Positions 38,750 to 63,594 of a stretch of DNA of 64,000 bases are shown in pieces. The stretch lies in NCBI GenBank assembly GCA_963666345.1, contig OY762721.1, positions 1,504,001-1,568,000 of the forward strand, read 5' to 3'. Both the position numbers and the translations under genes were made by a program. The notes below the pieces were generated by a model, which saw only the letters and a list, made by a program, of their open reading frames with translations, had not been told where the DNA came from and ran no database searches. This DNA is from Desulfatiglandales bacterium. Its GTDB lineage: Bacteria; Desulfobacterota; DSM-4660; Desulfatiglandales; Desulfatiglandaceae. Each line of letters begins with the position of its first letter. Within the stretch, counting starts at the first letter, position 1.

Positions 38750-38800
38750 GGTCACCCATGTTTATCAGGTAAAACCGATAAATTCATGGGTGTCCCCCTT
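38750..38800 (+). repeat. Cassette-boundary repeat R1, forming an inverted doublet hairpin
   Basis: AAAACCGATAAATTCATGGGTGTCCCCCT preceded by a degenerate reverse copy GGTCACCCATGTTTATCAGGT. Confidence 0.85.
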
Positions 38801-38819
38801 ATCGCTGCGTCAAAACAGC

Positions 38820-38855
38820 TTGCATCCCCTGTTTTTAATGACTATAATTATAGTC
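38820..38855 (+). promoter_or_regulatory. sigma70 promoter with palindromic operator for the phd-relE pair
   Basis: TTGCAT-17 bp-TATAAT; perfect palindrome GACTATAATTATAGTC 38840-38855 covers the -10. Confidence 0.75.
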
Positions 38856-38881
38856 TAAATGGGATGTAAAGGAGACCAGCA

Positions 38882-39154
38882 ATGACCAGAACCATTTCAC
38901 TTGCCGAGGCAAAAAAAAGCCTTTCCGCCATTGTAAAGGATGTTGATGAAAAATACGACCGCTTCGCCATTACAAGAAACGGCGTGAGTAAGGCCGTGCT
39001 CCTTAGCAGCGATGAATTCGAGGGGCTCCTTGAAACCATCGAAATTCTTTCAGCCGCGGAGGAGCGTGACGCCATAGCAAGGGCAAAGAAACAGGTGAGA
39101 TCGGGTGAAACCGTTTCTATCAGGAAAATCAGGGAAAGGTACGATATCGATTAA
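38882..39154 (+). CDS. Phd/YefM antitoxin
   Basis: ISLAEAK..LS.IV, ITRNG..KAVLLS..EFEGL.ETIEIL. Confidence 0.92.
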   Translation: MTRTISLAEAKKSLSAIVKDVDEKYDRFAITRNGVSKAVLLSSDEFEGLLETIEILSAAEERDAIARAKKQVRSGETVSIRKIRERYDID

Positions 39155-39417
39155 TGCCCCACTCTATTGAATTCTCAAAAGAGGCCGCACGGGACATCGA
39201 TGTCCTTTACTCTTCAGATAAAAAGCTCTTTACCAGAATAATCAACAAGATTGAATCTCTTGAGGAAACTCCCTTTGAAGGCAAACCCCTTGTGGGCAAT
39301 CACAGGGGTGAGTTCTCCTTGAGGGTGGGAAATTACCGCATCGTCTATGAAACCGATTCCCCGGCAAAAACCGTCTACATACTCACCATCAAACACCGAA
39401 GGCATGTGTACAAGTAG
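39154..39417 (+). CDS. RelE/ParE-family toxin
   Basis: GKPL.G...G.FSLRVGNYRIVY, I.HRR.VY; TAATG overlap. Confidence 0.92.
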   Translation: MPHSIEFSKEAARDIDVLYSSDKKLFTRIINKIESLEETPFEGKPLVGNHRGEFSLRVGNYRIVYETDSPAKTVYILTIKHRRHVYK

Positions 39418-39476
39418 CCGATATTTTTAATGGGTATCCGCTTGATACGGTCGTTATCATAAAAAAATGAGTGGAA

Positions 39477-39498
39477 ATACCACGCAATTGCGTGGTAT
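39477..39498. promoter_or_regulatory. Perfect 22-bp palindrome, probable operator
   Basis: ATACCACGCAATTGCGTGGTAT just upstream of HTH-MNT gene. Confidence 0.65.
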
Positions 39499-39509
39499 AA
39501 ACACGCAAT

Positions 39510-40097
39510 ATGGATACATTGAATACGATATTATCTTCCCGCACCCGCGCTGAAATCTTCAGGCTCCTTTTCGGCACCGTCGAGGAGGAGCTTCACCTTC
39601 GTGAGATCCAGCGCCGTTCCGGACTTAACGACAGCACAATCCGTCAGGAATTGCGTAAACTGCTTCAACTCGATCTGGTAAAGGGGCGAAAGGACAGTAA
39701 CAGGATCTATTACAGTGGCAACAGATCACACCCTCTCCATCCTGAAATCCGGAATATGGTTTTAAAGACTGTAGGCCTTGCTCAAGTCCTGAGAGACGCC
39801 CTTCAGGACGAACGGATTGAAGTGGCCTTTGTCTTCGGCTCTGTTGCAGAGGGCAAGGCAACCGCCGACAGTGATATTGACCTCTTTGTAATTGGAGATC
39901 TGGGCCTGCGCTCACTTTCAGAACTGCTCTCAGACACCTCCGAAAAAATCGGAAGAGAAATCAACCCTCACGTGATGAATGTAAGTTCCTTTCTTAAAAG
40001 GGTCGAAACCGGTGAACATTTTGTTTCCAGCGTAATCGAATCGCAGAAATTGTTCATAATCGGGACTGAAAATGACCTTAAAGCAATGGGCCGATAA
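39510..40097 (+). CDS. Winged-HTH plus minimal nucleotidyltransferase (MNT) antitoxin-like protein
   Basis: N-terminal HTH LHLREIQRRSG; FVFGSVAEG...DSDIDL. Confidence 0.88.
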   Translation: MDTLNTILSSRTRAEIFRLLFGTVEEELHLREIQRRSGLNDSTIRQELRKLLQLDLVKGRKDSNRIYYSGNRSHPLHPEIRNMVLKTVGLAQVLRDALQDERIEVAFVFGSVAEGKATADSDIDLFVIGDLGLRSLSELLSDTSEKIGREINPHVMNVSSFLKRVETGEHFVSSVIESQKLFIIGTENDLKAMGR

Positions 40098-40511
40098 CGG
40101 CTGGCTGACTTCTCATAAATCAAGTGCACAGGAAATAGGCAATCTCCTGGCTATTGTCGAGCGCGACATTAAAGACGCTTCTAAAAGAACCATTTCCGCG
40201 GATTGGCGCTTTGGGATCGCCTATAATGCCGCTTTAAAACTTTGCACCATCCTTCTTTATGCCGAAGGCTACAGGGCGGAAAGAAACCTTCAGCATTACC
40301 GTACTATTCAGGCCCTGCCACTCATCTTGGGACAAGAGAAAAAAAGGATGCAAATTACCTGGACACATGCCGCTCAAAAAGGAACATCGTCGAATACGAT
40401 TACGTTGGAGGGGTCACGGAAGAAGATGCGGAAGAACTCATTGATTTTGCAGAAGGCCTGAAAGAGGAAGTTGAAGTATGGCTTGAAAAAAGGCATCCGC
40501 TACTTGCATAG
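40072..40511 (+). pseudogene. HEPN-like toxin partner, frameshifted at A7 run 40339-40345
   Basis: N-half (WRFGIAYNAAL..., 40072 frame) and C-half (DANYLDTCRSKRNIVEYD..., 40242 frame) join if one A is added. Confidence 0.75.
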
Positions 40512-40570
40512 GGAAAACTCCCGCTGAACCTCCAATCGTCACCTCACCGACAAATTACGCTTAAATTCAG

Positions 40571-40601
40571 GAGAAACTGATAATTTCATGGGCGTCCCCC
40601 T
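40571..40601 (+). repeat. Cassette-boundary repeat R2 (subtype A)
   Basis: GAGAAACTGATAATTTCATGGGCGTCCCCCT. Confidence 0.95.
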
Positions 40602-40655
40602 TATTGCTTTAAGGGGAGAAACCGGCAGATCAATAATAGCTGCCCTATCATTTTT

Positions 40656-40671
40656 ACATCAATATTGATGT
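40656..40671. promoter_or_regulatory. Palindromic operator of HigBA-like pair
   Basis: ACATCAATATTGATGT, perfect 16-bp palindrome 9 nt before ATG. Confidence 0.65.
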
Positions 40672-40680
40672 TGACCAGCC

Positions 40681-41034
40681 ATGGAATTTACTATAGAATT
40701 TTATGAAACCAGCTCGGGTAGATCCCCTGTGCGTGAGTTTCTTGATAAGATCAAGGGATCCAGTCCCGATGATTTTGCGATGGTCCTGGCAGGGCTGGCA
40801 AAGCTCCGAAAAAGTAATTATCACAAGGCACCTCTATCAAAACCGATAGGGAACGATCTTTTCGAATTGCGACATGTCGGCAGGTTGAATACCAGAATCT
40901 TATACTTTTTTATGAAAGGAAGACGGATAATCCTTGTCCATGGCTTGAGGAAAAAGACAAGAGCCATCCCCGCCGGCGACCGGCAGGTTGCCATGGAGAG
41001 GAAAGAAGACTGGCTGAAGAGGAATACAACATGA
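40681..41034 (+). CDS. RelE/HigB-like (Gp49-type) toxin
   Basis: IEFYET.SG.SPV.EFL, LFELR, RILYFF, LVHG..KKT..IP. Confidence 0.9.
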   Translation: MEFTIEFYETSSGRSPVREFLDKIKGSSPDDFAMVLAGLAKLRKSNYHKAPLSKPIGNDLFELRHVGRLNTRILYFFMKGRRIILVHGLRKKTRAIPAGDRQVAMERKEDWLKRNTT

Positions 41035-41378
41035 AGGGAAAAACAGACTTTGACCGCTACCTTGAAGATCAATTGAAAAATCCCGAATTTGCCGCACGAT
41101 TCAAAAAGGCCGGCCAGGCCTGGGAGATTGCCATGCAGCTTGCCGCACTGCGTAAGGAATCAGGCTTATCTCAAAAGGAACTCGCAAATCGTCTCGGGAC
41201 ATCTCAGCAACAGATCAGCCGTCTTGAATCACCTGGCTATGAGGGGCATTCCCTGAGCATGATACGTCGATTTGCCGATGAACTGGGAGCTGCAGTCCAG
41301 GTAAGGATTGTAAAAAAGAGGCATACTGAAAAACTCGCCATCGCGGAAAAAAAGGGAGAATACCTGAACAAAACCTGA
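41031..41378 (+). CDS. XRE-HTH antitoxin (HigA-like)
   Basis: LRKESGLSQKELA.RLGTSQQQISRLE. Confidence 0.9.
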   Translation: MKGKTDFDRYLEDQLKNPEFAARFKKAGQAWEIAMQLAALRKESGLSQKELANRLGTSQQQISRLESPGYEGHSLSMIRRFADELGAAVQVRIVKKRHTEKLAIAEKKGEYLNKT

Positions 41379-41620
41379 TTTCCGGATGATGCCTTCGGCC
41401 CTGCATGTCGCAGGGCCGAAATATCCTGTCAATCCTGTTAATCAAGCGAAGCGGGAGGTTGATAACTCCTTTTTCTTCCTCGAAATACACCGACTTTTTT
41501 GCAATTACTCTGCAAAATATCCGCATCCGCCTTGCAAAAAAGGCCGTTAACTTTACATAAAGTCATTTGAAATTCAAGCGCTACACTGAGCATAAACATC
41601 TGATGTGAACTAAATATCAG

Positions 41621-41651
41621 GAGAAAAGCATAAAATCATGGGCGTCCCCCT
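41621..41651 (+). repeat. Cassette-boundary repeat R3 (subtype B)
   Basis: GAGAAAAGCATAAAATCATGGGCGTCCCCCT. Confidence 0.95.
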
Positions 41652-41892
41652 TATCTTTTTATGGTACAATAAATGTCCGATTATCATCCGGCATTTTGCG
41701 GAAATCATCCTATTTATTGCCATCCCAGCCGGTGCATAGACTCACTCAAGGGCCAGGCCAATTTTCAAAGAAATCTGCCCGAATCAGGCAGGGATCAGGC
41801 AACCTGGTTGAAATCGGTCATAAATTGTGACCGGTTCCAATCAGCAACATATGAGGCCACCATACAAAACCATCAGGATCAGGAAGTATAAA

Positions 41893-42417
41893 ATGCCCGG
41901 TCTTTTGCCTATTGAAAGAATCATCGAAAGGATTCATCTCATAAGAGGTATAAAGGTTATGATAGACAAGGATTTGGCACAGCTCTATGGTGTGGAAACA
42001 AAAGTCCTGAAGCAGTCTGTAAGAAGGAATATAAGACGGTTTCCCTCAGATTTCATGTTTGAACTGACAACACAGGAATATCAGTTTTTAAGGTCACAAA
42101 ATGTGACCTTAAAGAGAGGGCAGCACTCAAAGTACCCACCCTTTGCCTTTACAGAACAGGGAGTAGCAATGCTTTCATCAGTTCTTAACAGCGAGCGCGC
42201 AATAAATGCAAACATCCAGATCATGAGGGCATTTACACAGCTACGCCAGGTTTTGGCAGGACATGAGGACTTGAAAAGGAAGATAGAAGATCTTGAAAAA
42301 AAGTATGACCCCCAGTTCAGCGTAGTATTTGACGCAATCAAGGCCTTGATGGAAGAAGATCAAAAACCCCGAAGAAAAATCGGATTTGTGATAAAGGATA
42401 AAAAAGAGACTCACTGA
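41893..42417 (+). CDS. ORF6N-domain DNA-binding protein
   Basis: IRG.KVMID.DLA.LYGVETK.L.Q.V.RN..RFP.DFMFEL, PFAFTEQGVAMLSSVLNS, RRKIGF. Confidence 0.92.
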   Translation: MPGLLPIERIIERIHLIRGIKVMIDKDLAQLYGVETKVLKQSVRRNIRRFPSDFMFELTTQEYQFLRSQNVTLKRGQHSKYPPFAFTEQGVAMLSSVLNSERAINANIQIMRAFTQLRQVLAGHEDLKRKIEDLEKKYDPQFSVVFDAIKALMEEDQKPRRKIGFVIKDKKETH

Positions 42418-42443
42418 AAGATATGTGGTTTGTAACATAAGGG

Positions 42444-42474
42444 GAAAAACGCATAAAATCATGGGCGTCCCCCT
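42444..42474 (+). repeat. Cassette-boundary repeat R4 (subtype B)
   Basis: GAAAAACGCATAAAATCATGGGCGTCCCCCT; 35 bp identical to R5 including trailing GTCAT. Confidence 0.95.
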
Positions 42475-42903
42475 GTCATAGGGCTATCTGATGCCCTTAA
42501 GGATGAAGAGAGGCTCGCAAATTCTTTTGCAGACAGCATCACCCCTCTTCTTATTCCAGAGATACAAATTCATGCCTGGCGCGACAGGGAACTGATCGTC
42601 GTTACGGTACCTCATACTGCAGGGCCTTTTTACATTAAGGCAGAGGGTCTTGAAAACGGTGTTTACATAAGGTTAGGTTCTACGAACCGTAGGGCAGGCT
42701 CTGAAATGATCGCTGAACTCCAGCGACTTGCACGCAACTCTTTCTTTGATGAAAAGCCTTTCCCGGAAATCAACTCGGAAGATATTGACTTCCGAGCAGC
42801 TTCCGAGTTCTTTTCTGCTGTAGCCCGTAAATTGACATCTCCAAGAATGGAATCTCTTGGTCTAGTTGTCGATCACGGTGGAAACAGCAGCAGGGCTTTT
42901 TAA
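42475..42903 (+). pseudogene. Internal fragment of AlbA_2/Schlafen-domain ATP-binding protein
   Basis: Open frame VIGLSDALKDEERLANSFADSITP...GVYIRLGSTNRRA...FDEKP begins at the R4 end; lacks N- and C-termini. Confidence 0.75.
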
Positions 42904-42929
42904 AGAAAATTAAAGATGACATATTGGAG

Positions 42930-42960
42930 AAAAAACGCATAAAATCATGGGCGTCCCCCT
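42930..42960 (+). repeat. Cassette-boundary repeat R5 (subtype B)
   Basis: AAAAAACGCATAAAATCATGGGCGTCCCCCT. Confidence 0.95.
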
Positions 42961-43033
42961 GTCATGGACAGGCAACCGATGCCTCAAATTTCGATCTCAT
43001 AACCTGGCTTGTCACCAAATCAGGAAAAGGCTG

Positions 43034-44500
43034 ATGGCTGATCTCAAAGCGCTTATAAAACAGGGAGAAGGCGTTTCTATTGAATTCAAGGAATGTAGAC
43101 GAGCCCTTAACCGGGATGTTTATGAGACCGTCTGCGCGTTTCTCAACCGTCACGGTGGAAACCTGCTCCTCGGGGTCAGTGATGCCGGTGAAGTTACCGG
43201 TGTTGATCCGGACTGCATTGCTAACATTAAAAAAGACTTTGTAACGACCATTAACAATCTGCAGAAACTCCATCCTCCTGCCTATTTGTCAGTCGATGAG
43301 GTTGATATAGAAGGCAAGACGGTCTTGCGCATTTATGTGCCGGAGAGTTCACAGGTCCACCGCTGCAACGGGCGAATTTACGACCGCAATGAAGACGGTG
43401 ACCTCGATATTACGGATCATACCCGGCAGGTAGCCGACCTGTATCATCGCAAACAATCCAGCTACTCGGAGAACAAGATCTATCCGCATGCAGGTCTTGA
43501 AGATCTGCGGTCCGACCTCATTGATAAATGCCGCAGACTTGCAGGTGTCTGGCGAGAGGGGCATCCCTGGCTTGATATGGACGATATGGAGCTGTTGAAA
43601 AGCGCGCAACTCCACCAGACGGACCCTGAAACAGGCAAAAGAGGCATCACCTTGGCCGGCATACTACTGCTCGGTAACGACCAGCTCATTTTAACGGCGG
43701 TACCGCATCACCGGACCGATTTGATCCTGCGCAAGGTCAACCTGGATCGCTATGATGACCGGGATTTGGTGTGCACCAACTTGCTCGAAAGTTATGACCG
43801 TATTATTGCCTTTGTGCAGAAGCATTTGCCGGACCCCTTTTTTCTGGAGGGAATGGAACGTATCAGCATTCGCGATACCATCTTTCGTGAGGTAGCCTCC
43901 AACATCTTGATTCACCGGGAATTCACCAACGCTTTCCCTGCCAAGTTGATTATCGAGCGTGGTCAGGTACGCACCGAAAACAGCAACAAGCCTAATGGGT
44001 TCGGCGTCCTCGACCCGGCCACTTTCACTCCATTCCCCAAGAATCCTGTGATCGGCGCATTTTTCCGGGAAATTCACCGCGCTGATGAACTAGGCTCCGG
44101 AATGCGTAAGATGATGCGCTATGGCAGGGCCTATGGCGGTGCCGATCCGGAAATGATCGAAGGCGATGTGTTTAGAATCGTTGCCAAGACTCCGGAATTC
44201 AGCGCAACAGGTGAAGGGGAAGTCACCCCCCATGTCACCCCCCATGTCACCCCCCATGTCACCCCCCATGTAAAAAAGCTGCTTAAGATTTGTGAGGGTG
44301 AGAAAGGAAGGGCGGAACTACAGGAGTTGCTAAATATAAAAGACAGGAAGTATTTCCGGGAATCTTATTTAACCCCTTCATTTGAAATCGGATTTATTGA
44401 GATGACTATTCCGGATAAACCTCAAAGTCGACTACAGAAATACCGGCTGACGGCAAAAGGAAAGGCATGGTTGGATAAGAATAGGGATAAGGGAAAATAA
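43034..44500 (+). CDS. AlbA_2 (Schlafen-like) + RecG-C-like ATPase domain + C-terminal wHTH protein
   Basis: GEG.SIEFK, VCAFLN..GG.LLLGV.D, REV..N.LIHR, KNP.I, LGSG, TIPDKP.SRLQKYRLT. Confidence 0.88.
   Translation: MADLKALIKQGEGVSIEFKECRRALNRDVYETVCAFLNRHGGNLLLGVSDAGEVTGVDPDCIANIKKDFVTTINNLQKLHPPAYLSVDEVDIEGKTVLRIYVPESSQVHRCNGRIYDRNEDGDLDITDHTRQVADLYHRKQSSYSENKIYPHAGLEDLRSDLIDKCRRLAGVWREGHPWLDMDDMELLKSAQLHQTDPETGKRGITLAGILLLGNDQLILTAVPHHRTDLILRKVNLDRYDDRDLVCTNLLESYDRIIAFVQKHLPDPFFLEGMERISIRDTIFREVASNILIHREFTNAFPAKLIIERGQVRTENSNKPNGFGVLDPATFTPFPKNPVIGAFFREIHRADELGSGMRKMMRYGRAYGGADPEMIEGDVFRIVAKTPEFSATGEGEVTPHVTPHVTPHVTPHVKKLLKICEGEKGRAELQELLNIKDRKYFRESYLTPSFEIGFIEMTIPDKPQSRLQKYRLTAKGKAWLDKNRDKGK
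44222..44269 (+). repeat. 12-bp tandem repeat x4 in coding linker (VTPH)4
   Basis: (GTCACCCCCCAT)4. Confidence 0.95.
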
Positions 44501-44652
44501 GTTGATAAGATTGGATCATCTCCAAAAGAGTTGATCTAAATGAAGGATTCTTCGCTCCGCTCAGTCCCACTGCTTCGCAGCGGGTTCCCAGTTTCGAAGG
44601 GTCAAGGGTTCGCGGGTTCGAGTGAAACGCTTAAAAATTACAAAGAGTTAAA

Positions 44653-44780
44653 CATCCAGGAATTGGTCATTTCCGGATATTGCTTTCAGCCATCAGCAAA
44701 TGACAAATAAGTTGATATTCCGGATCTGTTACTGACAGCTGAGCGCTGAGAGCTGATAGCTGATAGCTTGAGCCTATAAT
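44653..44780. mobile_element. Partial copy of GCTGATA-repeat MITE-like element (see 60206-60363)
   Basis: CATCCAG.AAT..TCATTTC.G.AT.TTGC.TTCAGCC.TCAGC...GAGCGCTGAGAGCTGAT.GCTGATAGC shared. Confidence 0.6.
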
Positions 44781-44922
44781 TCATTTGACTTTCCCGCTTC
44801 ATTCTTATTAGCCTGTATCGGTTTGTACTAAAAATATTTTTGAAAATTCTTGTTTTTTGCACGATTTTGTATTTAATCTGTATTTCCCTGCGAACATTTT
44901 TTCAGACTCACGCTGACGCAAA

Positions 44923-45150
44923 ATGCAAAAAAACAGGCCTGCCGCAAAAGATAGATTCACCGGATGCCTCATCGGGCTTGCAACAGCAAACGCCCCCGGC
45001 ACAACACTAGAGTTTAACCCTCCCCCTACATTTGAACCGATAAGCGATATCACCGGCGCCTTTTACGGATATGAGGGTATCCCAAACGAATGGATTTAAA
45101 AAATCGCCATAAGTGATATTATAGAGGAAACAGCAGCAGGACTTTTTAAA
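44923..45150 (+). pseudogene. Internally deleted ADP-ribosylglycohydrolase remnant, copy 2
   Basis: MQKNRPAAKDRFTGCLIGLATANAPGTTLEFNPPPTFEPISDI fused in frame to C-terminal-like GAFYGYEGIPNEWI* (stop 45097-45099). Confidence 0.65.
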
Positions 45151-45244
45151 GGCGAGGGGAAATGATCTATCGGGAGATAAATGGATAATCTCACGGGTGT
45201 CCATATAACCATTAACACTTCAACCAAAATATAGGCAAAATTTT

Positions 45245-45589
45245 ATGAAAGAATTGATTCAAAAGTTGAGAAATTTCGCAAAAGAAAGAGAATGGGAACA
45301 ATTCCATTCGCCCAAAAACCTTGCCATGGCACTGAGCGTTGAAGTTGCTGAGATTGTCGAAATATTTCAATGGTTGACACAGGAGGAAAGCAAAAACTTA
45401 AGGCCAGATGTATTGCAAAAGGTCAAAGAAGAAATTGGGGATGTAACGATATTCCTTACGAATTTAGCAGACAAACTTGGGATTGATCTTTTAGCGGCTG
45501 CAATGGAAAAGATTGAAGTCAACGAGCGGAAATATCCCGTGGATAAAGCAAAGGGAAGTGCCAAAAAATACACGGAATTTGAAAAATGA
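45245..45589 (+). CDS. MazG-like nucleotide pyrophosphohydrolase
   Basis: FAKEREWEQFHSPKNLAMALSVEVAE..E.FQW, EEIGDV, N.RKYP. Confidence 0.92.
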   Translation: MKELIQKLRNFAKEREWEQFHSPKNLAMALSVEVAEIVEIFQWLTQEESKNLRPDVLQKVKEEIGDVTIFLTNLADKLGIDLLAAAMEKIEVNERKYPVDKAKGSAKKYTEFEK

Positions 45590-47451
45590 TCGTATATTCT
45601 TCGACCAAATCAGAGTTCAGACAGGATGTCCGTGATAACCGAATTGACGGATTAATACTAGAAGCCTATCAACGCAACCTTGGCCACTCGACCAGTAAGG
45701 CAGAAATAGCATCATGGAAGAACTCCATGATGTATATGAACAATATACTGGAAGATGATGATATACCTGATAATACAGGCGTGGCCATCGAATATAAGGT
45801 CCCTCAAACCTCAAAGCGTATCGATTTTATTCTTACCGGTACTAATAACCAAAATAGAAGTACAGCAATTATTGTGGAGCTCAAACAATGGTCAGATGCA
45901 AAACTCACAGATAAAGATGGTGTCGTAAAAACAACCCTAGGTGGGGTACAGCGAGAAGTTAATCATCCGTCATACCAAGCCTGGACATATGCAGCCTTAC
46001 TTGAAGATTTTAATAAAACAGTTCAGGAGCAGAATATAGCGCTAAAACCATGTGCATACCTACATAATATGAAAAAAGGGGATGTAATCAAAAATCCTCG
46101 ATATAGGAGCTATCTTCAAAAAGCACCATCATTTATAAGAACAGATGCTAAAAGGCTATCCGACTTTATCAAACAATTCATACGCTATGGGGATTCAGGC
46201 AAAATCATATTTGAGATTGATAATGGCAAGATCAGACCATCCAAAAATCTGGCAGACAAACTTCTATCGATGCTTCAAGGCAATGAAGAATTTATTATGA
46301 TTGACGACCAAAAACTCGTCTTTGAAGCAGCTTTAAATCTGGTACAAATATCAACTGTTAAAGATAAGCATGTACTCATAGTGGAAGGTGGTCCAGGTAC
46401 AGGGAAGTCTGTTATTGCCATTAACCTGCTTGTACAGTTAACAAATGACAGACTCGTTTCACAATATGTGACAAAGAATGCTGCGCCACGTGATGTCTAT
46501 GAAAGTGTGCTGACAGGTTCGTTCACTAAAAGTCATATTTCTAATTTGTTTATTGGATCAGGTGGCTATATAAATTGTGAGCCGAATATCTTTGATGCAT
46601 TAATCGTTGATGAAGCCCACCGTCTCAATGAAAAATCAGGGATGTTCCAAAACAAGGGTGAAAATCAAATAAAGGAGATCATTAAGGCATCTAAGGCCAG
46701 CATTTTTTTTATCGATGAAGATCAACGTGTTACTTGGAAGGATATAGGCGAAATAAGGGAAATAGAAAAATGGGCCAATAAACTCGGTGCAACCGTTCAT
46801 AGAATGGAATTGCAATCTCAATTTAGATGTAATGGTTCAGACGGTTATCTGGCTTGGATCGATAATGTTCTACAAATAAAAGAAACCGCAAATGATACCT
46901 TAGAAGGCATTGATTTCGACTTTCGTGTTTTTGATTCACCGAATAAGCTAAGAGAGGCTATTCTAGATAAGAATAAAATCAATAATAAAGCAAGGTTAGT
47001 AGCAGGCTATTGTTGGAATTGGATAAGCAAAAAGCCAGAAAATAAGGCACAAAATGACATAGTCATCGAGGAGGATAACTTCGCGATGAGATGGAATCTT
47101 GCGTCAGATGGTAATTTATGGATTCGCAAACCAGAGGCAGTTAATGAGATCGGATGCATTCATACATGTCAAGGGTTGGAACTTGACTACATCGGCGTGA
47201 TCCTTGGCCCCGATATTGTTATAAGAAATGGTGAATTGTTAGTTCAACCAGATCAAAGGGCAAAGACAGATCAATCCCTAAAAGGTTATAAGAAGGCATT
47301 AAACGAAAATCCAGGAGCTGCCATTGCTAAAGCTGAAGCTATTGTCAAGAATACATACAGAACACTGATGTCACGAGGGCAAAAGGGTTGTTATATCTAC
47401 AGTACAGACCCAGAAACAAACGCATATTTTTCAGAACTAGCAAAATCAGTT
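45586..47451 (+). pseudogene. DUF2075 (Schlafen group 3-like helicase) protein with N-terminal nuclease-like domain; 5' part, interrupted by IS21
   Basis: RIDF..IIVELKQW, GGPGTGKS, IVDEAHRL, QFRC, IHTCQGLELDY, NTYRTLMSRG; ATGA overlap with MazG. Confidence 0.85.
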
Positions 47452-47554
47452 TGTCAATAGGCGTTGAAAATTGACCCATCATCGGCGTCCAAAATTGACC
47501 CACCCCTGAGAAAAAAATATGGTTAAATAGTTGAGTAGTTGATCCCTTCTTTAT

Positions 47555-52580: not shown

Positions 52581-52594
52581 TGAGGTGAAAGAGA

Positions 52595-56059: not shown

Positions 56060-56245
56060 ATGACAGACATTGACCAAAGAGTTCGAATTGCGGCTTTTAA
56101 GTGGCTGGATGAGCAGGTCGGCATCCATGGTGACGTATTGCCTCGTTCGCTCCTTGCCCAGGGCTTTATATTCAATGGACAGCGGGTCCCCTTGGTTGCG
56201 CCTACAGGAATATTCAAACCCAGGGTTCTTCCACAAATGGATTAG
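56060..56245 (+). pseudogene. N-terminal stub of a probable HNH-type endonuclease, truncated at repeat R6
   Basis: MTDIDQRVRIAAFKWL...GDVLPR..L..GF.F.GQRVPL....GIFKP recalled as an HNH N-terminus; stop TAG overlaps R6. Confidence 0.6.
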
Positions 56246-56274
56246 GGGGACGCCCATGAAATTATCAGTTTCTC
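56244..56274 (-). repeat. Cassette-boundary repeat R6 (subtype A)
   Basis: AGGGGGACGCCCATGAAATTATCAGTTTCTC, exact reverse complement of R2. Confidence 0.95.
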
Positions 56275-56378
56275 ATTCCATATTTATTTAAACAGTCTCG
56301 GATAAAGGTAGGGAGCAGGGATTATATCTCTATTTGGCTCTTGCAGAACTACGGATTGCGGGGAACGGCTTTTAAATA

Positions 56379-56672
56379 TCACTTTTCAGGGGCAGCCGAC
56401 TCTCTTTCCTTTTCTATTTTTTCGTGCAGCCAGAGAGCCATAAGCTGTGTGTGGGGGATTCCCTTTTTACGGGCAAGACGTTTTATAATTGAGATATCAA
56501 ACGGATCCATGCGAATGGAAACCGGCTGACGGGGAGGCCGTTTGGCCTTGAAAAGTTCAGCCCCGCTGAGCTGTTTTTCGACATCCTCGACACTTTCTCC
56601 GGCAACAGCCCTATCCCACTGTTCCGCCTCTTCACGGATCTTGTTTCTTATTTCTTTTGGAAGTCTGCTCAT
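56379..56672 (-). CDS. CopG/BrnA-like RHH antitoxin
   Basis: EEAEQWD, PVSIRM...I..IKRLARKKGIP.TQL..LWL.EKI. Confidence 0.8.
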   Translation of the reverse strand: MSRLPKEIRNKIREEAEQWDRAVAGESVEDVEKQLSGAELFKAKRPPRQPVSIRMDPFDISIIKRLARKKGIPHTQLMALWLHEKIEKERESAAPEK

Positions 56673-56989
56673 TTTCCAATCCTTTTAAAATAAACTCTTT
56701 TAGTGGAATCCGACATGTGAAAGGCCGTTACACATCGCCACAAACCATACTGGGGATACGGGGCCACAATCACTTCAATGCATAACCCGGAGGAATCCGT
56801 GCCCCATAAGCGGTATCTAAATTCGATGGATTTCCCGGATTTTTTTCTGTTTTTGACAGCAAAGGTAGGAAACGGCCCTTCGCTGTAATAGACCTCTTCC
56901 ACCTGTTCGGGATGTATCCCATGAACAGCAATGTGATTTATGTTATCCTCATCCCGGTCAGGCACAAGAGATGGATCCGGTCTGATCAT
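56669..56989 (-). CDS. BrnT-like toxin
   Basis: DEDNINHIA.HGI.PE.VEEV, RYRL.G.D.SG, RCVTAF.M; ATGA overlap with antitoxin. Confidence 0.7.
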   Translation of the reverse strand: MIRPDPSLVPDRDEDNINHIAVHGIHPEQVEEVYYSEGPFPTFAVKNRKKSGKSIEFRYRLWGTDSSGLCIEVIVAPYPQYGLWRCVTAFHMSDSTKRVYFKRIGK

Positions 56990-56996
56990 GCAAAAA

Positions 56997-57025
56997 ATAA
57001 TAACGTAATTTTTTGATTACGTCAA
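56997..57025 (-). promoter_or_regulatory. sigma70 promoter with operator for BrnT-like pair
   Basis: Minus strand TTGACG-17 bp-TATTAT containing inverted repeat ACGTAAT-N6-ATTACGT. Confidence 0.7.
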
Positions 57026-57057
57026 GCCTCCCTCTATGTAATATATACCCATCTATC

Positions 57058-57087
57058 AGGGGGACGCCCATGAAATTATCAGTTTCT
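57058..57087 (-). repeat. Cassette-boundary repeat R7 (subtype A)
   Basis: AGGGGGACGCCCATGAAATTATCAGTTTCT. Confidence 0.95.
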
Positions 57088-57170
57088 TTGAATCGCCATA
57101 CCTGAAAATCTCTGCTTGAGGCCGGATGTTTCTTGACTCAATACCATTCAATTTTATTCTATATACCCCT

Positions 57171-57842
57171 TTAAAGTCCCAAAAGTTTTTTTGACAAACT
57201 GTGCAATTCTGAATTTGCAAGCGCAACCACCTTCTTTTTTACTCTCCGGGAGTAATATTCCTGTTCTGTCTTTGTGAGGGGAAGGCCTTCAAGTTTCTTT
57301 TTAAACAGCTCCTTTTGTTTTGGAGAAAATATTTGCGAAAGGGCATACTCCAGGGATAATTCTTCATATTTTGCTGTCCTCTGTTTGTCCTTTTCTGCCT
57401 TCTTTTCAAAATAGAGTTCGAATAACCCTTTCACACGCTCTGCATTAAGCTTGATGTCGCTGAATTCCAGAGTCTGGTTATGTGCTAAACGATTCCTCAA
57501 TTTCCTGACCAGTGTCTTATCTTCATCTGTAAACTTGTTTTTCAGGCTGTTCCACCAGGGAAAGGAAAGGTGGTAAAAGGAATATAGCGATCCGGAAAAC
57601 AGTATCAAATGATGAAATCGAAGCTTCTGTTCTTTTGTAGTTAACTGCTCTTCTACCTGTCCCGGATCAAACTGATAGCTTTCAGCAGCATTTGCCAGCA
57701 ATACAGGAAAACCTTCCCATAATCTGGTATCACACTCCCTGACTACTCTTGCCAGGGTTTCCCTGGCATCAAAGTCTTCTTCCGGCTCCAGCATGGGAAA
57801 ACCCAGTTTTGATAAGCTGGTCAAAAACTTACTGTCATTCAT
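57171..57842 (-). CDS. Hypothetical partner of nucleotidyltransferase, possible C-terminal HTH
   Basis: Overlaps upstream gene; LSQIFSPKQKEL..KKL....LTKTEQEYYSR. Confidence 0.75.
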   Translation of the reverse strand: MNDSKFLTSLSKLGFPMLEPEEDFDARETLARVVRECDTRLWEGFPVLLANAAESYQFDPGQVEEQLTTKEQKLRFHHLILFSGSLYSFYHLSFPWWNSLKNKFTDEDKTLVRKLRNRLAHNQTLEFSDIKLNAERVKGLFELYFEKKAEKDKQRTAKYEELSLEYALSQIFSPKQKELFKKKLEGLPLTKTEQEYYSRRVKKKVVALANSELHSLSKKLLGL

Positions 57843-58422
57843 AAAGCCCCTCTCTTCGTAACAATTCGAGGAAGTGGTCAATGTTCGGCCTCAATCGATC
57901 TTCTCCCACATCGTAACCAACCAATTCATGAAAATGCGCGATAAGCTTTTCTATATCGATCTCCTTTTGCCGGTACTCCACTAACCTCAGACAGTCTTCG
58001 AAATCAACATTGGTTCCCCTCATCAATTTGCTGGAAATCAGGTCATAATCATTGAGGATGCCGATATAAAGATAAGAAAATTCCTTAAGTATAGAATGCC
58101 TGCCCATCTCAAGAGGGTTAACAAGCAGTTCTGTCGTGTGAATCCGATTACCCTGGAAAAGATCGAAGCGAAAATTCTCTCCGGCTCGTTGCCACCCTGA
58201 ACCTGTTATCTGCTTGTACCCCAGGTCCTTTAATTGTTTCGTCAGGTAAGCATATTCTCTAGCCATGGGAACCATAAAATCCACATCTTTGGTCGAGGGT
58301 TTGATCCCAATCAGAGTCATTGCCGTTCCACCGCAGGCAATGAGTTGTACTTTTCGCCTGAGGAAGCGATTCCAATCTTCCATGATATCAAGAAGCCGAT
58401 CTTTACCTAACCTATATTTCAC
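57835..58422 (-). CDS. DUF6036-like nucleotidyltransferase
   Basis: IACGGTAM....KPSTKDVDF, DL..SKL.R....DFED. Confidence 0.8.
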   Translation of the reverse strand: MKYRLGKDRLLDIMEDWNRFLRRKVQLIACGGTAMTLIGIKPSTKDVDFMVPMAREYAYLTKQLKDLGYKQITGSGWQRAGENFRFDLFQGNRIHTTELLVNPLEMGRHSILKEFSYLYIGILNDYDLISSKLMRGTNVDFEDCLRLVEYRQKEIDIEKLIAHFHELVGYDVGEDRLRPNIDHFLELLRREGLYE

Positions 58423-58721
58423 TTGTATTAAAACCTACAAATTGTTGTCATTATATAATCATTTTATTGTACTATATGATACAAATTAAACTAATTTTTG
58501 TCAACAAATACACTCAGATATTTTTAGCAGCAATATTTCATGAAATTATTCCGGATTCCTTGATGGCGAAAACCTGTAATTTTAGATTTTTAACTAATTT
58601 GTAATATTATAATCAGTTTATTGTATATTTTAATTCAATTATTTGTACGATATAATACAATTTAATATAAGAACAAGCCGTGTAACCAAAGAAGAGGGTC
58701 ACATCTTGATTTGCCAGGATT

Positions 58722-58752
58722 AGAGGGACGCCCATGAAATTATCAGTTTCTC
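58722..58752 (-). repeat. Cassette-boundary repeat R8 (subtype A)
   Basis: AGAGGGACGCCCATGAAATTATCAGTTTCTC. Confidence 0.95.
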
Positions 58753-59021
58753 ACGGGGTTTTCGCTGATTGGAAATGACTTTCGAGAAATCACATGGGCG
58801 GAACAATACAGCCAAAGGGAACTAAAGGAAGTCTCAAATGGATTCAGCATGTGGTTAATGACTTTCCATACGTGTTGAGCAGGCCCTTAATTGATGCAAT
58901 TGTATGATATGAGGGACGTTATCGGCTATCGTGACAAACTCCCGATGAAAAAATGATAAAATTGTTATCACGGTTCACTCTGAGGTGTATAATAGAGTTT
59001 TTATAAAGGGAGGATAATAAA

Positions 59022-59312
59022 ATGGCACAAGATCCGGGAATAGGTAAAAAAGTTGTGGCCACAATTACAGGTGTAAATGGTGAATGCAGTGCCGGGCATA
59101 AGGCAGGCGATACCTTTACGATCAGCTGCCATAATCCCGCCGGGCTGTGTGGTTTCTTTTATCACGATATTTTCCCCAGCCTTTCCACGTTCCAGTTCGG
59201 GGGCTCTCTGCCGTGGTGGAAAGGCGATACGATTGAGCTCCAATGTCCCGATAATAACATTGTCACGTTAAAATTGGAGAGATTCGAGAGGAAGTGGTGT
59301 AACAAAGTTTAG
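59022..59312 (+). CDS. TIGR04076-like small Cys-rich protein
   Basis: C.AGHK.GD.F, GLC..FYH.IFP, CPD; GGGAGG RBS. Confidence 0.75.
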   Translation: MAQDPGIGKKVVATITGVNGECSAGHKAGDTFTISCHNPAGLCGFFYHDIFPSLSTFQFGGSLPWWKGDTIELQCPDNNIVTLKLERFERKWCNKV

Positions 59313-59493
59313 GCCCGCTTATTTTGAGGATAAGGACGCTGAAAACTGAAAGAGGAGGTGCTTATTGAGAGATGCCTGAACCGTAGAGGGGGACGTAGGG
59401 TCCGAAACAACCTATGAAAATTCATTACGAATTGCCCTCTTTCCTCTCCGTCTCAGACATGACGGGCCAAAGGCGTTTACAGAAAAATCAGCT

Positions 59494-60135
59494 ATGGGAA
59501 AAGAATATGACATCGTAGCAAAGTTTTATGACCCTTTGCTTTATTTTTTCATGAAGCCCGTAAGAAAGGCGTTACTGAATGAACTCCTGACGCACAAGGA
59601 TAAAGCCATTCTGGATATCTGCTGCGGCACAGGCAATCAAGTAAAGCTTCTGGCAGAACACGGGTTCACTAATCTTCATTGTCTGGATTCATCCGCTTCT
59701 ATGCTGGAAATAGCAAAAAAGTCCGATTATCCTATCCACATCTATAATCAAGACGCTACAAAAACAAATTTTGATAATGAATCTTTTGATGTCGCGATTA
59801 TCAGTTTCGCGCTCCATGAAAAAGACAGAACCACCCAGGAAAACTTCATCAAAGAAACCCATAGACTGTTAAAGAATGACGGCATTTTACTGGTTGTTGA
59901 TTTTGCCTTTGATGAGTTAACTGCTATATTCAGTAAAATCGGAATAATTCTCGTGGAAAGACTGGCAGGCGGGGAGCACTATTCGTATTTCAAGAGCTAC
60001 ATCCAAAATAATGGCCTGTCAAGCTTGATTAAAGAAGATAAATTTATACTCATAAAAAATTTTCGAAAGCTTTTCGCTGGAGTCATCGTATCATTATATC
60101 GGAAAGTTCAGGACATAGATGCATTCTGTTTGTAA
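59494..60135 (+). CDS. Class I SAM-dependent methyltransferase (UbiE-like)
   Basis: ILDICCGTG, LDSS..ML, SFD...ISFALHE. Confidence 0.88.
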   Translation: MGKEYDIVAKFYDPLLYFFMKPVRKALLNELLTHKDKAILDICCGTGNQVKLLAEHGFTNLHCLDSSASMLEIAKKSDYPIHIYNQDATKTNFDNESFDVAIISFALHEKDRTTQENFIKETHRLLKNDGILLVVDFAFDELTAIFSKIGIILVERLAGGEHYSYFKSYIQNNGLSSLIKEDKFILIKNFRKLFAGVIVSLYRKVQDIDAFCL

Positions 60136-60205
60136 ATGGGGGCATCCGTAAATAAGTAAACAACTCAAAATAGCGCGCATCCATAACCATTTACTTGGGC
60201 TTAGG

Positions 60206-60363
60206 TAGTTTCCATCCAGAAATGAATCATTTCTGAATGTTGCCTTCAGCCGTCAGCTATCAGCAGGTAGCCAACAAATTTATATCTCAACTGTTTTACT
60301 GAGCGCTGAGAGCTGATTGCTGATAGCGTGAGTCCGTAAATCTTGATTTATGGATGAGCACTA
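60206..60363. mobile_element. MITE-like element with internal GCTGA(T/G)A heptamer repeats
   Basis: Terminal IRs TAGTTTCCATCCAGAAAT / ATTTATGGATGAGCACTA (14/18); related partial copies at 44653-44780 and 24341-24380. Confidence 0.6.
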
Positions 60364-60422
60364 GGTAGTAGGACCCTCCAGAGGCAGGGAAATAGTTTAT
60401 CAATAATTGAAAGGAGGAAAAA

Positions 60423-60749
60423 ATGGAGAAAAAATGGACCTACAAAAATTATGAGATTGAAGAAGGATTAAGACCCGGGAGTTCAAAGTTTCAATATTTT
60501 TTCGTTGTTTCCGAAAAGGGTGTGAAAAAGAGTAATTACTGTGTCTGGTTAAAGGATGATGCTTTATCCCGTTTTGATCAATCTGAAAATTTTGATACGA
60601 TTATCTCGTCTCAAAGAGAAAACTGGGTCAAATGGATTAAGGAAAAAATTGATGCGCAGGATTTTCAAAATCGCGCTTTAAAATTTGATAAGACAGGTGA
60701 AATGGAGATAAACCTGTCTGAAATGAAGGAACATATCACCATGGATTAA
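60423..60749 (+). CDS. Hypothetical protein
   Basis: Strong AGGAGG RBS, 108-aa ORF. Confidence 0.75.
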   Translation: MEKKWTYKNYEIEEGLRPGSSKFQYFFVVSEKGVKKSNYCVWLKDDALSRFDQSENFDTIISSQRENWVKWIKEKIDAQDFQNRALKFDKTGEMEINLSEMKEHITMD

Positions 60750-60853
60750 AAACCGCGGATTCGGAAAGGGGTCAGATCTACGCTTGACTGTTGCCGGCTT
60801 TTAAAAAGGTGACGCCCTCAAATAACTCAAGATAGAATGAAAGACCGCAGATT

Positions 60854-60884
60854 AGGGGGACGCCCATGATTTTATGCTTTTCTC
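60854..60884 (-). repeat. Cassette-boundary repeat R9 (subtype B)
   Basis: AGGGGGACGCCCATGATTTTATGCTTTTCTC, exact reverse complement of R3. Confidence 0.95.
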
Positions 60885-60933
60885 TTATAGGAAAGAAGCA
60901 GCCATATAAGATTCAGCCAACCATGTCTCATAC

Positions 60934-61545
60934 CTATGGATGGGGTATTATCATTTCTTTTGTGTCTTCGACAAGTTGTATCAGGCAGCCTACTGCCTCT
61001 TTAATCGCCTCTTTCGGGTCAACTCCCAATGATTCTGCATTGAGCGTGTTATTTAAATAGTATTTGACCAGATAATTCTTGTCGTCTTCATCAGGAAAGA
61101 CATGATACCTTTCAAGTAACTCCGACTTCCTTTTCTCAGTAACGGCACGCAGTCTGTCTTCCCATTTCTGTATCTTCTGTTTCATGTTCTTGGGCGTTTT
61201 ATCAGGCAGGTTGTAATAGAGGTAGGCCCAAAGACCGTCTTCCCTATTTTCCGCCGTAAGGGAGTCCCAGTTGAAATATTCAATCCCGTAAAAAAGACCC
61301 ATCTCATGCTTTCCGTCATAATATTGCTTAGGGGTCAAGGTAACTTCATCTTCATTTTCTTCATATTCCCATTCTATCTCACCATGAAAAGGCATCTCAT
61401 TTATTCTTCGCCCCAGTTCCCTGAAAACTTCACTTCTCAGCCAGTCAGGAACCCGCTTTTCCGCTTGAGAACAACTTTCCTTCAAGGCTTCCACGGCCTT
61501 GAGGTTTTTTACAATAAAGTCACATTCCTGGTTGACAATAATCAT
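60934..61545 (-). CDS. Hypothetical acidic protein
   Basis: AAGGAG RBS; co-oriented downstream of PD-(D/E)XK gene. Confidence 0.75.
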   Translation of the reverse strand: MIIVNQECDFIVKNLKAVEALKESCSQAEKRVPDWLRSEVFRELGRRINEMPFHGEIEWEYEENEDEVTLTPKQYYDGKHEMGLFYGIEYFNWDSLTAENREDGLWAYLYYNLPDKTPKNMKQKIQKWEDRLRAVTEKRKSELLERYHVFPDEDDKNYLVKYYLNNTLNAESLGVDPKEAIKEAVGCLIQLVEDTKEMIIPHP

Positions 61546-61565
61546 ATCTATTCTCCTTACCTGTT

Positions 61566-62372
61566 TTAGAAAAGCCAGCTTGAGCCGAAAAAGTGCCTCA
61601 AGGCACCGATCCCGTTACTGTCAATTTTTGTAGACTCCGCGATACTGCCCAGTTCCTCCCAGATTATTTGATTCAGTTTATCTCTCGATAGATTAATAAA
61701 TTTACCGCTTTTTGACTTTGTGCCGTATGGCGTGACAAAATAGGCGGCAATGTTCTTTTTGGATACCCCCATGGTTTCGGCAAATCCCTGTAAATCTTCC
61801 CATTCCCTTACCGTTTGAGGCCTGCCGGTCTTATGAGATGTTTCAGAGCCTGATTTTACCTTCAGCTCTATATCAATTATCACGTTTTCATCTGAAAAGT
61901 CCCTTGTAGATATCCTTATGTCTATACGGGAATTATCACCACTCTGCTCCCGCCTGACTGAGATATCTTCTTCCTTTTTTCTCTCTACAATCAATGCTAT
62001 TTTTTCCTTTCCGGTTTCTTTCAACAGCCTGACAATAATAGATTTTCCAAATGGAGACTTCTTAGGGTTTAACATATCGGCCGTGATGTCGCTGATTGCA
62101 TCTTCCCCTAATTTCAATCTCAATTCCCGGAAAAGATCATACTGCACGGCCTTTAAAAAGAAAGGCTTTTTCTTATAGGCTTCAACCAGTCCCCTTGTCA
62201 GGGAAAAACGTTCTTCTTTTCTTTGAAATGACTTTTCAAACAGGCCTGAGTCCTTGTAATTTTCAATCAAGATTTTAATGGTTTCATATCCTGAGGCAGG
62301 AGAAAACCGGCGTGTATAATCTTTCATCAGATTTTTTACGGCGGTAAATTTGAGCGGATCAGATTTTTTCAT
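61566..62372 (-). CDS. PD-(D/E)XK nuclease-family protein
   Basis: VRRE....SRIDIRI...IIDIELKV...E....Q, YFVTP.G. Confidence 0.75.
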   Translation of the reverse strand: MKKSDPLKFTAVKNLMKDYTRRFSPASGYETIKILIENYKDSGLFEKSFQRKEERFSLTRGLVEAYKKKPFFLKAVQYDLFRELRLKLGEDAISDITADMLNPKKSPFGKSIIVRLLKETGKEKIALIVERKKEEDISVRREQSGDNSRIDIRISTRDFSDENVIIDIELKVKSGSETSHKTGRPQTVREWEDLQGFAETMGVSKKNIAAYFVTPYGTKSKSGKFINLSRDKLNQIIWEELGSIAESTKIDSNGIGALRHFFGSSWLF

Positions 62373-62484
62373 ATTCTTCCCGATTATTTTTATTATGATC
62401 CATTACCAGAAAAAGACTCAGAGATAAACCCCGCTCATATCTTGACACCAGGTTTTCCCGCCGCAAATTTCTGAAACACCCTTT

Positions 62485-62514
62485 AGGGGGACGCCCATGA
62501 TTTTACGTGTTTCT
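62485..62514 (-). repeat. Cassette-boundary repeat R10 (subtype B variant)
   Basis: AGGGGGACGCCCATGATTTTACGTGTTTCT. Confidence 0.93.
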
Positions 62515-62703
62515 TTGGATTGATAATGCCTGGAAATCTCTATTTGATAATAGATGTTCCTTGACTGAACGCCATTCATCTGCTTTTTCTATAACCGTCT
62601 CATGAACTGTTACTTTCGCCCTTTAAAATGAGGGACACGAAGGGCGACGACATTGCGTTAAAAAACTACTGTTCTAAAGTATTGAAAGGCCGGGGAATTT
62701 GAA

Positions 62704-63507
62704 ATGAGATTAAAATTCGATCCTTTTCAGATCTTTCAAAACAGCCTGACACCAGCGGGTCTCTATGCGAGGAAGAAGTGGCTGGATCAGGGCATAGGAA
62801 AAAACTGGCAGAGCGACTATAATAGAACGGTTTCAGAACTGCTTCACAGACAGGCTGACGATGGTTCCTGGGATCAATCTCCCCTCCTTACAATCAGAAG
62901 GCTCTTTGGTCTTCACCTTACGGTCCGGGAGCGAACCGCACCGATCGAAAAATCACTCCATTGGCTTTTGGAGTGCTGCATGGCTCAGTTTCCCGGAAAG
63001 CGCCTTGTTCTGGATGATCGGTTGACCTACCGGGTACTCCGTGACCTTCCCTTCAGCCCCGGATGTTCAGGTTATTTCTTATATGGTGCCGCTCTTTTCC
63101 TTTCGACTATCTTCGGCATGGAAAAGGACGAGCGGGTTCTGTTTATGTATCAGGCCCTCGCCGAATCGGGCATAAAATACAAGGGTCGCTGGTGCGGGTT
63201 ATCTAGCACAAACAATATCTTGAGGGCCTTTATCGTTCATCCGGAATTTGCTTCTCATAAAGCAACCAGGCTTGCTGTCGAGGCCCTTGCCTGCCGGCAG
63301 AAACCATCCGGTTCCTGGAAAAGGCCCGTTCCTTTTTACCAGACAGTCAACGCACTTGCCCATTTGAACCTGGAAAGCGCTGAAGCTCAAATCAAAGCGG
63401 CATTTAAAAGGGCTTATCGTTCACAGAATAAAGACGGGTCCTGGGGCACGGTCAACAAGGAGTGGAATACCTTTCTGGTTGTTCACGCATTAAAGAATTA
63501 CGGGTGA
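62704..63507 (+). CDS. Prenyltransferase/squalene-cyclase repeat (QW-motif) protein
   Basis: QADDGSW, QKPSGSW, QNKDGSW. Confidence 0.75.
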   Translation: MRLKFDPFQIFQNSLTPAGLYARKKWLDQGIGKNWQSDYNRTVSELLHRQADDGSWDQSPLLTIRRLFGLHLTVRERTAPIEKSLHWLLECCMAQFPGKRLVLDDRLTYRVLRDLPFSPGCSGYFLYGAALFLSTIFGMEKDERVLFMYQALAESGIKYKGRWCGLSSTNNILRAFIVHPEFASHKATRLAVEALACRQKPSGSWKRPVPFYQTVNALAHLNLESAEAQIKAAFKRAYRSQNKDGSWGTVNKEWNTFLVVHALKNYG

Positions 63508-63563
63508 AAGACAGGGCACCGGTTCTTCATCCCCGCCAGGTTATTCCCGAGCGTGAATAATTC

Positions 63564-63594
63564 AGGGGCACACGCCCATGAAATTATCAGCTTT
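63564..63594 (-). repeat. Cassette-boundary repeat R11 (degenerate subtype A)
   Basis: AGGGGCACACGCCCATGAAATTATCAGCTTT. Confidence 0.85.

Follow-up and report, generated by a model that had tools for sequence, protein, structure and literature searches.

The window analysed here is the whole 64,000-nt stretch from position 1,504,001 to 1,568,000 of contig OY762721.1 in the genome of a Desulfatiglandales bacterium (assembly GCA_963666345.1). Between 38771 and 63596 it carries two arrays of a 30-bp repeat whose eleven copies separate small toxin-antitoxin (TA) and defence modules. We can say with high confidence that this repeat is the terminal inverted repeat (TIR) of a TIRtron, an element encoding a TIRYT-type Y1/HUH transposase with a C-terminal DnaA-like helix-turn-helix (HTH) domain. 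Comparison with close relatives shows that the CCCCCT end of the repeat is a recurrent structural breakpoint. The two arrays and the stretch between them are laid out as follows.

38771–38799 (+): TIR copy 1 of the + array, with a T variant in its core, 73 nt past the stop of an M20 peptidase gene
38800–40570 (+): module 1, with a Phd antitoxin, a ParE/RelE-type toxin, an HTH-nucleotidyltransferase (MNT) and a 129-aa open reading frame (ORF) without a family match
40571–40601 (+): TIR copy 2
40602–41620 (+): module 2, with a Gp49/HigB-like toxin and an HTH antitoxin
41621–41651 (+): TIR copy 3
41652–42443 (+): module 3, an ORF6N-domain gene
42444–42474 (+): TIR copy 4; a 99.96%-identical metagenome contig diverges at the first base past it
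42475–42929 (+): module 4, a 5'-truncated AlbA_2 gene fragment whose reading frame is already open at the base following the TIR
42930–42960 (+): TIR copy 5
42961–56243 (no strand): central defence stretch between the arrays, with AlbA_2/Fic_C, MazG-like, Schlafen-type helicase, IS21, S24 peptidase, Mrr, HNH and GmrSD genes
56244–56274 (−): TIR copy of the − array
56275–57057 (−): module with a CopG/BrnA-like gene (weak match) and a 106-aa ORF
57058–57088 (−): TIR copy
57089–58721 (−): module with a DUF6036 nucleotidyltransferase-like gene and a 236-aa ORF
58722–58752 (−): TIR copy with one core mismatch
58753–60853 (+): module with genes opposite to the TIRs, for a TIGR04076 protein, a methyltransferase and a 108-aa ORF
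60854–60884 (−): TIR copy
60885–62484 (−): module with a PDDEXK_4 nuclease gene and a 203-aa ORF
62485–62515 (−): TIR copy
62516–63563 (+): module of a single gene opposite to the TIRs, with weak squalene-cyclase-repeat matches
63564–63596 (−): outermost, decayed TIR copy with a 2-base insertion

All eleven copies listed in an earlier note, which was made from the letters of this DNA alone, do exist. Nine of them contain the core CATGGGYGTCCCCCT without change, at 38785, 40587, 41637, 42460 and 42946 on the + strand and at 56244, 57058, 60854 and 62485 on the − strand; the copy at 58722 (−) has one mismatch, and the copy at 63564 (−) is genuine but decayed (nhmmer E 0.0021). With up to two mismatches allowed, the core matches the window 11 times, against 0.39 matches by chance, and none of 100 shuffles reached that count. 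The eleventh of these matches, at 24901 (−) with two mismatches, is at chance level and is absent from a profile search, which was also blank over window positions 1–38,700, in keeping with the note's statement that the first 38.7 kb hold no copy. A possible twelfth copy, decayed and on the + strand, lies near 45168–45205 (E 0.14) and has a 26-base upstream stretch in common with the copy at 42930.

Conservation spans 30 bases with sharp ends, beginning with AGAAA and ending after CCCCCT (consensus AGAAAcGCATAAwwTCATGGGCGTCCCCCT). Five copies lie on the + strand (38771–42960), spaced 486–1802 bp apart, and six on the − strand (56244–63596), spaced 814–2132 bp apart. Orientation is uniform within each array (5/5 and 6/6), and it remains so in the − array even though two of the five modules there have genes on the opposite strand only. 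The CCCCCT ends of the two arrays point toward each other across the island. All copies in the window are solo TIRs, and most lie 26–242 nt past the stop of a same-strand gene. The claim that every copy sits at a gene boundary holds for most copies and fails for the one ending at 42474, which abuts the truncated AlbA_2 fragment. The copies at 57058 and 62485 are alike over about 80 more bases on their 5' sides (57089–57165 and 62516–62595; 74% identity over 109 bp), which points to a longer sub-family of the repeat, judging from the sequence.

Pfam and NCBIfam profiles agree with most of the module names first given to these genes (the Phd and ParE/RelE-type pair, MNT, Gp49/HigB with its HTH partner, ORF6N, the AlbA_2 fragment, DUF6036, TIGR04076, the methyltransferase and PDDEXK_4). 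Support is weak for the BrnA-like (E 0.0046) and squalene-cyclase-repeat calls, no family matched the supposed HEPN partner (40072–40461), and the BrnT-like partner is likewise unconfirmed. A scan of 34 ORFs of the window found no recombinase.

The repeat does not fold. For both strands of two copies, DNA folding gave z scores of −0.27 to +0.62, hairpins in the TIR or in its longer flanks were not above chance, and the repeat has no GTAG or CGTC tag next to a stem. These results bear on the idea that the repeat is a shared cis-regulatory or RNA element (operator, terminator or stabiliser) that closes TA operons and plays no part in DNA rearrangement. Most copies do fall in what are probably 3' untranslated regions of genes on their own strand. 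However, the repeat lacks secondary structure, no Rfam match was found in window 36000–64000, inverted copies flank a transposase gene in many genomes, and structural breakpoints fall exactly at the repeat end. We consider a purely regulatory element very unlikely.

The transposase unit and its class

Searched with a profile of ten copies, the 4.16-Mb genome yields about 19 in all. Eleven of these fall inside the 25-kb stretch described above, which is 0.6% of the genome, so that the clustering looked for by a whole-genome scan is present. Five more lie at 2.027–2.045 Mb, and single copies lie at 0.55, 2.78 (weak) and 3.36 Mb. GC skew places the origin near 2.14 Mb and the terminus near 0.12 Mb; a tie between TIR orientation and replication was considered and dropped, there being no clear link and both orientations occurring on one replichore.

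At 2.027 Mb, two inverted copies of the repeat (L001 9861–9905, −, and 10926–10964, +) enclose a 339-aa ORF (L001:9896–10915, −; genome 2,026,896–2,027,915), with their CCCCCT ends pointing outward. The encoded protein matches Pfam Y1_Tnp (E 5.2e-10) and, at residues 260–313, Bac_DnaA_C (E 2.3e-6), a domain also present at a further locus, L067. It has an HUH motif (HFH) and the catalytic-tyrosine motif RYIHLNP, both invariant in 7/7 aligned homologues. The nearest NCBIfam model is REP_Tyr_transpos, at 58.5 bits and under its 80-bit cut-off, and a phmmer search of PDB sequences returned no solved Y1/RAYT relative, the sole match being a designed repeat protein on the tail. The gene has one full copy in the genome. 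The whole unit measures about 1.09 kb, units of 1091–1096 bp with the same ends occur at eight loci, and no target-site duplication was seen at TIRtron ends or at doublets. A copy of the repeat thus abuts a Y1/RAYT gene, with inverted TIRs on both sides of it, and the enzyme that the earlier note had supposed to act in trans would be this Y1/HUH transposase of the REP-associated kind (REP, repetitive extragenic palindromic), one of the two candidates that the note had named.

We assigned the protein to the TIRYT class from the described architecture (Y1/HUH, HTH tail and non-hairpin TIRs). Di Nocera 2013 names TIRYT and TIRtron and describes TIRs as moderately abundant families that are single, dimeric or clustered (PMC3733652). 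Quentin 2018 assigns such genes to TnpA-Y1 subclass 2.1, of which subgroup 2.1.2, the equivalent of the class here, has a Bac_DnaA_C-like tail (PMC6006769). In Bertels 2017 they are RAYT group 1, with flanking 16-mers at about 12 copies per genome, and form the 'domesticated' Y1 transposase group of greatest size and widest spread (PMC5581495). The outer TIR end GGGGACGC matches 7/8 positions of GGGGWSAS, a published motif that holds for some TIRs only (PMC3733652).

Our unit resembles the described class in its Y1/HUH domain with a C-terminal Bac_DnaA_C-like HTH, its one gene copy per genome, the non-hairpin terminal inverted repeats beginning with a G run that flank the gene, its moderately abundant TIRs (single, doublet or cluster), and its patchy, horizontal-looking host range. 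The system therefore belongs to a described, if obscure, class (PMC3733652, PMC6006769) and is not categorically new, contrary to the earlier description of it as novel. What differs here is the presence of same-strand solo-TIR arrays between TA and defence modules, and of TIR-bounded module indels, which the available text of the TIRYT papers, supplements aside, does not report. In the RAYT literature nothing relevant to toxin-antitoxin modules or cassettes stood among the papers listed, and a search for TIRYT/TIRtron found the founding works only. The polar solo-TIR arrays between such modules, and the module indels at their ends, appear to be new.

Comparison with other repeat systems

Like the REP/RAYT systems of E. 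coli and Pseudomonas, including REPINs, the system has a single-copy Y1 gene with inverted flanking repeats that are also dispersed between genes, mostly past gene ends, and it forms doublets, here in other genomes. In contrast, a REP is an imperfect palindrome that bears a GTAG or CGTC tag and is present in hundreds of copies, whereas this repeat has no fold and about 19 copies. Since it is unfolded, it is neither a REP hairpin nor an attC site.

The same genome holds a second Y1 transposase paralogue, at about 1,930,150–1,931,250 and 35% identical to the TIRYT. A true palindrome, CCGATTTCAGGT...ACCTGAAATCGG, stands on either side of this gene, and about 23–29 half-site matches are found genome-wide. 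Given these palindromic flanks and scattered half-sites, the paralogue represents a separate REP/RAYT-like system.

With IS200/IS605 elements such as IS608, the TIRtron has in common the Y1/HUH family and the lack of a target-site duplication at unit ends. The ends of those elements are dissimilar subterminal hairpins rather than inverted repeats, and the elements are multicopy, whereas here the ends are inverted, the gene has one copy and the repeat alone is dispersed. Xer/dif-type modules were also considered. The pdif sites are 28 bp long, a 6-bp spacer separating two dyad-symmetric 11-bp arms, and alternate in orientation; we rejected this candidate for a 30-bp unit that has no self-complementarity and whose array copies all point one way.

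The layout most resembles that of integrons, in which same-strand sites also lie downstream of small, often TA-bearing modules and variants with site, module and site occur beside variants with a single site; the proposed TIR chemistry would act on single strands too. This resemblance raises the possibility that the repeats are divergent attC sites of an unusual integron, used by a tyrosine recombinase (IntI), and the genome does encode such an enzyme. The canonical integron lies at genome positions 1,351,329–1,359,980 (L143 2329–10980), about 184 kb from the arrays. Its intI gene (1,359,012–1,359,980; 322 aa; TIGR02249, 472 bits against a cut-off of 265) is the sole IntI in the genome, and it has its own array of four nearly identical, directly repeated 155-bp elements, each at the 3' end of an opposite-strand ORF. 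These elements fold at −71.8 kcal/mol (z −9.7) and have GTTA-type cores at the end; among the ORFs are a methyltransferase, a 1256-aa STAND-type NTPase and several without a family match.

The TIR bears no relation to these 155-bp repeats and has no copy near intI, so the TIR arrays are integron-like in layout only. They lack an adjacent IntI, an attI, a folded attC and RYYYAAC/GTTRRRY cores, and their enzyme is an HUH transposase. Moreover, attC sites are folding imperfect inverted repeats of 55–150 bp, in contrast to this sharp-ended and unfolded 30-bp unit, which is the end of a Y1 transposase unit at at least eight loci. An unusual integron is thus extremely improbable, and the earlier judgement that the repeats are not attC sites stands.

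Module turnover at the CCCCCT end

The breakpoint evidence comes from two comparisons. G061 and G062 are sister metagenome-assembled genomes (MAGs) whose flanks are 89–95% identical and which hold 29 and 21 TIR copies. At one locus (G061:C214, L040), G061 has a TIR, a 1.65-kb Phd/MNT/HEPN module and a second TIR, where G062 (C25) has one TIR and both flanks align. At another (G061:C81, L136), a 750-bp module with AbrB/MazE and PIN genes stands between two TIRs in G061, and G062 again has one TIR. A 10.2-kb indel between the two genomes begins 4 nt past a TIR.

The other comparison concerns the window itself. Metagenome contig L117 matches window 28777–42474 at 99.96% identity and then, from the first base past the TIR, continues into a GIY-YIG gene that has no counterpart in the window; the AlbA_2 fragment occupies its place. 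This fragment starts at 42475 and covers only positions 45–117 of 118 of the Pfam profile, and its missing 5' part was not found upstream in the window. Relatives therefore differ by repeat-bounded modules, as the strain comparison suggested in the earlier note would have it. The idea of cassettes is borne out in part, as far as the presence and absence of repeat-bounded TA modules at two loci.

The repeat is patchily distributed in other genomes. An exact 15-mer occurs in 3/36 other genomes of the same family and in 0/24 genomes from other families of the order. A degenerate 22-mer finds 100 stretches in 47 public assemblies, mostly of Desulfobacterota (Desulfobacterales, Geobacterales and Syntrophales-type MAGs) with a few odd MAGs; it has no match on viral contigs, and only three plasmid records match the TIRYT protein, at 27–37% identity. 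Cross-genome alignments of 76–91% identity end at the TIR ends. TIRYT homologues are 49–59% identical, yet the TIR site stays exact, which speaks for selection acting on the site and for horizontal spread. Geomonas and its relatives have gene-less TIR-TIR doublets of 63–79 bp, and TA or defence genes, among them HicAB, MNT/HepT, DUF433/DUF5615, AbiEii and PIN, lie within 2 kb of TIRs at 9/16 other loci scanned.

Several truncated TIRYT genes and TIRs are nested together on a 3.1-kb contig of Geomonas paludis (L052), and the sequence suggests that in that genome TIRtrons insert into or recombine with one another. We dropped L067 as a six-copy array, as it holds a run of N and a duplicated flank. 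The FAA-hydrolase genes found by TIRs both here and in G061/G062 were likewise set aside as common cargo: the proteins are 21% identical, and we regard the match as a coincidence.

These observations must be weighed against a passive explanation, in which solo TIRs are selfish leftovers, akin to REPs or miniature inverted-repeat transposable elements (MITEs), scattered singly by TIRYT or by doublet decay into tolerant intergenic gaps. Such gaps would be most closely spaced in an island of short operons that was acquired horizontally, and turnover would reflect homologous or slipped recombination, with no capture. Much is consistent with this. The class is described with single, dimeric and clustered TIR families (PMC3733652), and the roughly 12 copies given for group 1 RAYT flanking 16-mers (PMC5581495) are near the 19 found here. 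The placement past same-strand stops is REP-like, both clean indels carry direct repeats, and housekeeping genes are also flanked by TIRs.

Two orthologous intergenic sites are also of the kind seen at small-element hot spots (L049 5994–6122 versus L110, and L139 2013–2193 versus L121 1735–1884). At both, G061 has a TIR joined to a CTCTGTG-rich element of about 100 bp, and G062 has, between the same flanks, an unrelated high-copy repeat of about 165 bp with CGTAAAAAGTC-type ends.

Four features fit the passive explanation poorly. The orientation of the arrays is uniform even over opposite-strand genes, and 11/19 copies are packed into so small a part of the genome. The break in the AlbA_2 gene coincides exactly with the TIR end, and the gene's 5' part is absent upstream, an outcome that the mere insertion of 30 bp would not give. 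Finally, in the near-identical strain the module is replaced, not just deleted, from the first base past the TIR. We regard passive scattering as a serious alternative that nevertheless falls short of an even chance.

A number of observations count against enzyme-driven stacking of modules. The TIR has no hairpin, unlike the substrates of the Y1 transposases studied so far, all of which, to our knowledge, read hairpins. The view that cargo is specific to TA and defence genes is not supported: outside the island TIRs also lie beside ordinary genes such as those for FAA hydrolase and transporters, and in this genome beside UbiA, Lgt and glycosyltransferase genes; at the remaining loci scanned in other genomes the neighbours are ordinary genes. 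About nine aligned TIR sites are unchanged between G061 and G062. Both clean TA indels carry direct repeats of about 60–150 bp that include the TIR, so ordinary recombination could have deleted the modules. At L040, outgroups do not set the direction of gain or loss: three relatives hold the DegT flank without a TIR, and two hold a homologous TA pair without TIRs.

In addition, a DNA comparison with the 100 TIR-bearing stretches found no window module beside a TIR elsewhere, and its sole match longer than the repeat, 170 bp at 69% identity, falls outside the arrays, in the central stretch. At the protein level there are five match rows for three queries (ParE, ORF6N and a 258-aa ORF), at 28–47% identity. 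With no window module common to other TIR loci, the comparison gives no instance of one and the same cassette having moved. G061, G062 and L117 are metagenome assemblies, in which a misjoin or repeat collapse is possible. Four sequencing runs were examined, all as Logan contigs, which break off at the TIRs; in the isolate's own run no circle, excision or deletion junction was found. A reciprocal exchange at the G062 TIRtron was also sought, and the MarR-side flank was not found in G061.

One joint was not counted. Related-strain contig X4 (depth 3.6) runs from the TIR end at 42474 via nine other letters to 44725, a target that sits in a repeat of about 25 copies. This repeat (44653–44780) and another at 44512–44653 (about 45 genome copies) lie just past the AlbA_2/Fic_C gene, and a relative of the former is found at 60213–60332. 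The central stretch also contains an IS21-family element at 47555–49790 (−), with istA (rve and Mu-transposase C domains) and istB, bounded by a 29-bp perfect inverted repeat (47481–47509 and 49837–49865). In the sequencing runs it has about ten times the depth of its neighbours and is thus multicopy.

A proposed model for module stacking and its significance

We hypothesize that the TIRYT, acting in trans, would recognise the TIR and, since the TIR has no hairpin, may do so on duplex DNA by means of its HTH tail. The enzyme would cut and rejoin one strand at CCCCCT or a few bases past it. Two same-strand TIRs would then allow a unit of module plus TIR to be released, with the donor resealed, and the released unit could join in after any other TIR. 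Repeated rounds would stack modules in a single orientation, in the manner of an integron or of IS608 peel-and-paste but by HUH chemistry. The model borrows from IS608 the idea that one fixed short sequence is both the insertion point and the right-end cleavage site, so that the TIR would serve as target and right end at once, roles known from that element.

Taken as a whole, the explanation in which the TIR is both TIRtron end and breakpoint, and a trans-acting TIRYT releases and stacks modules, has in our view about an even chance of being correct on the sequence evidence. The enzyme-driven cassette step on its own is more tentative, and we would sooner doubt it than rely on it. The broader proposal, that TIRYTs run a second, integrase-free cassette system that reshuffles TA and defence arrays in Desulfobacterota, beside the canonical integron of the same genome, is unlikely on present evidence.

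We know of no function or activity shown so far for TIRYT or group 1 RAYT genes. The end-repeats of such a transposase form the junctions within a defence island, and it is precisely at these repeats that close relatives have or lack entire TA modules; the repeats may work like integron docking sites without being an integron. A cultured isolate, a single enzyme and a substrate of 30 bases are enough to test the case directly. If the enzyme is not involved, short transposase-derived repeats still organise the turnover of defence islands. If it does make the joints, TIRYT genes would gain a function, and the shuffling of cassettes in the manner of integrons would have evolved twice, the second time by a different chemistry.

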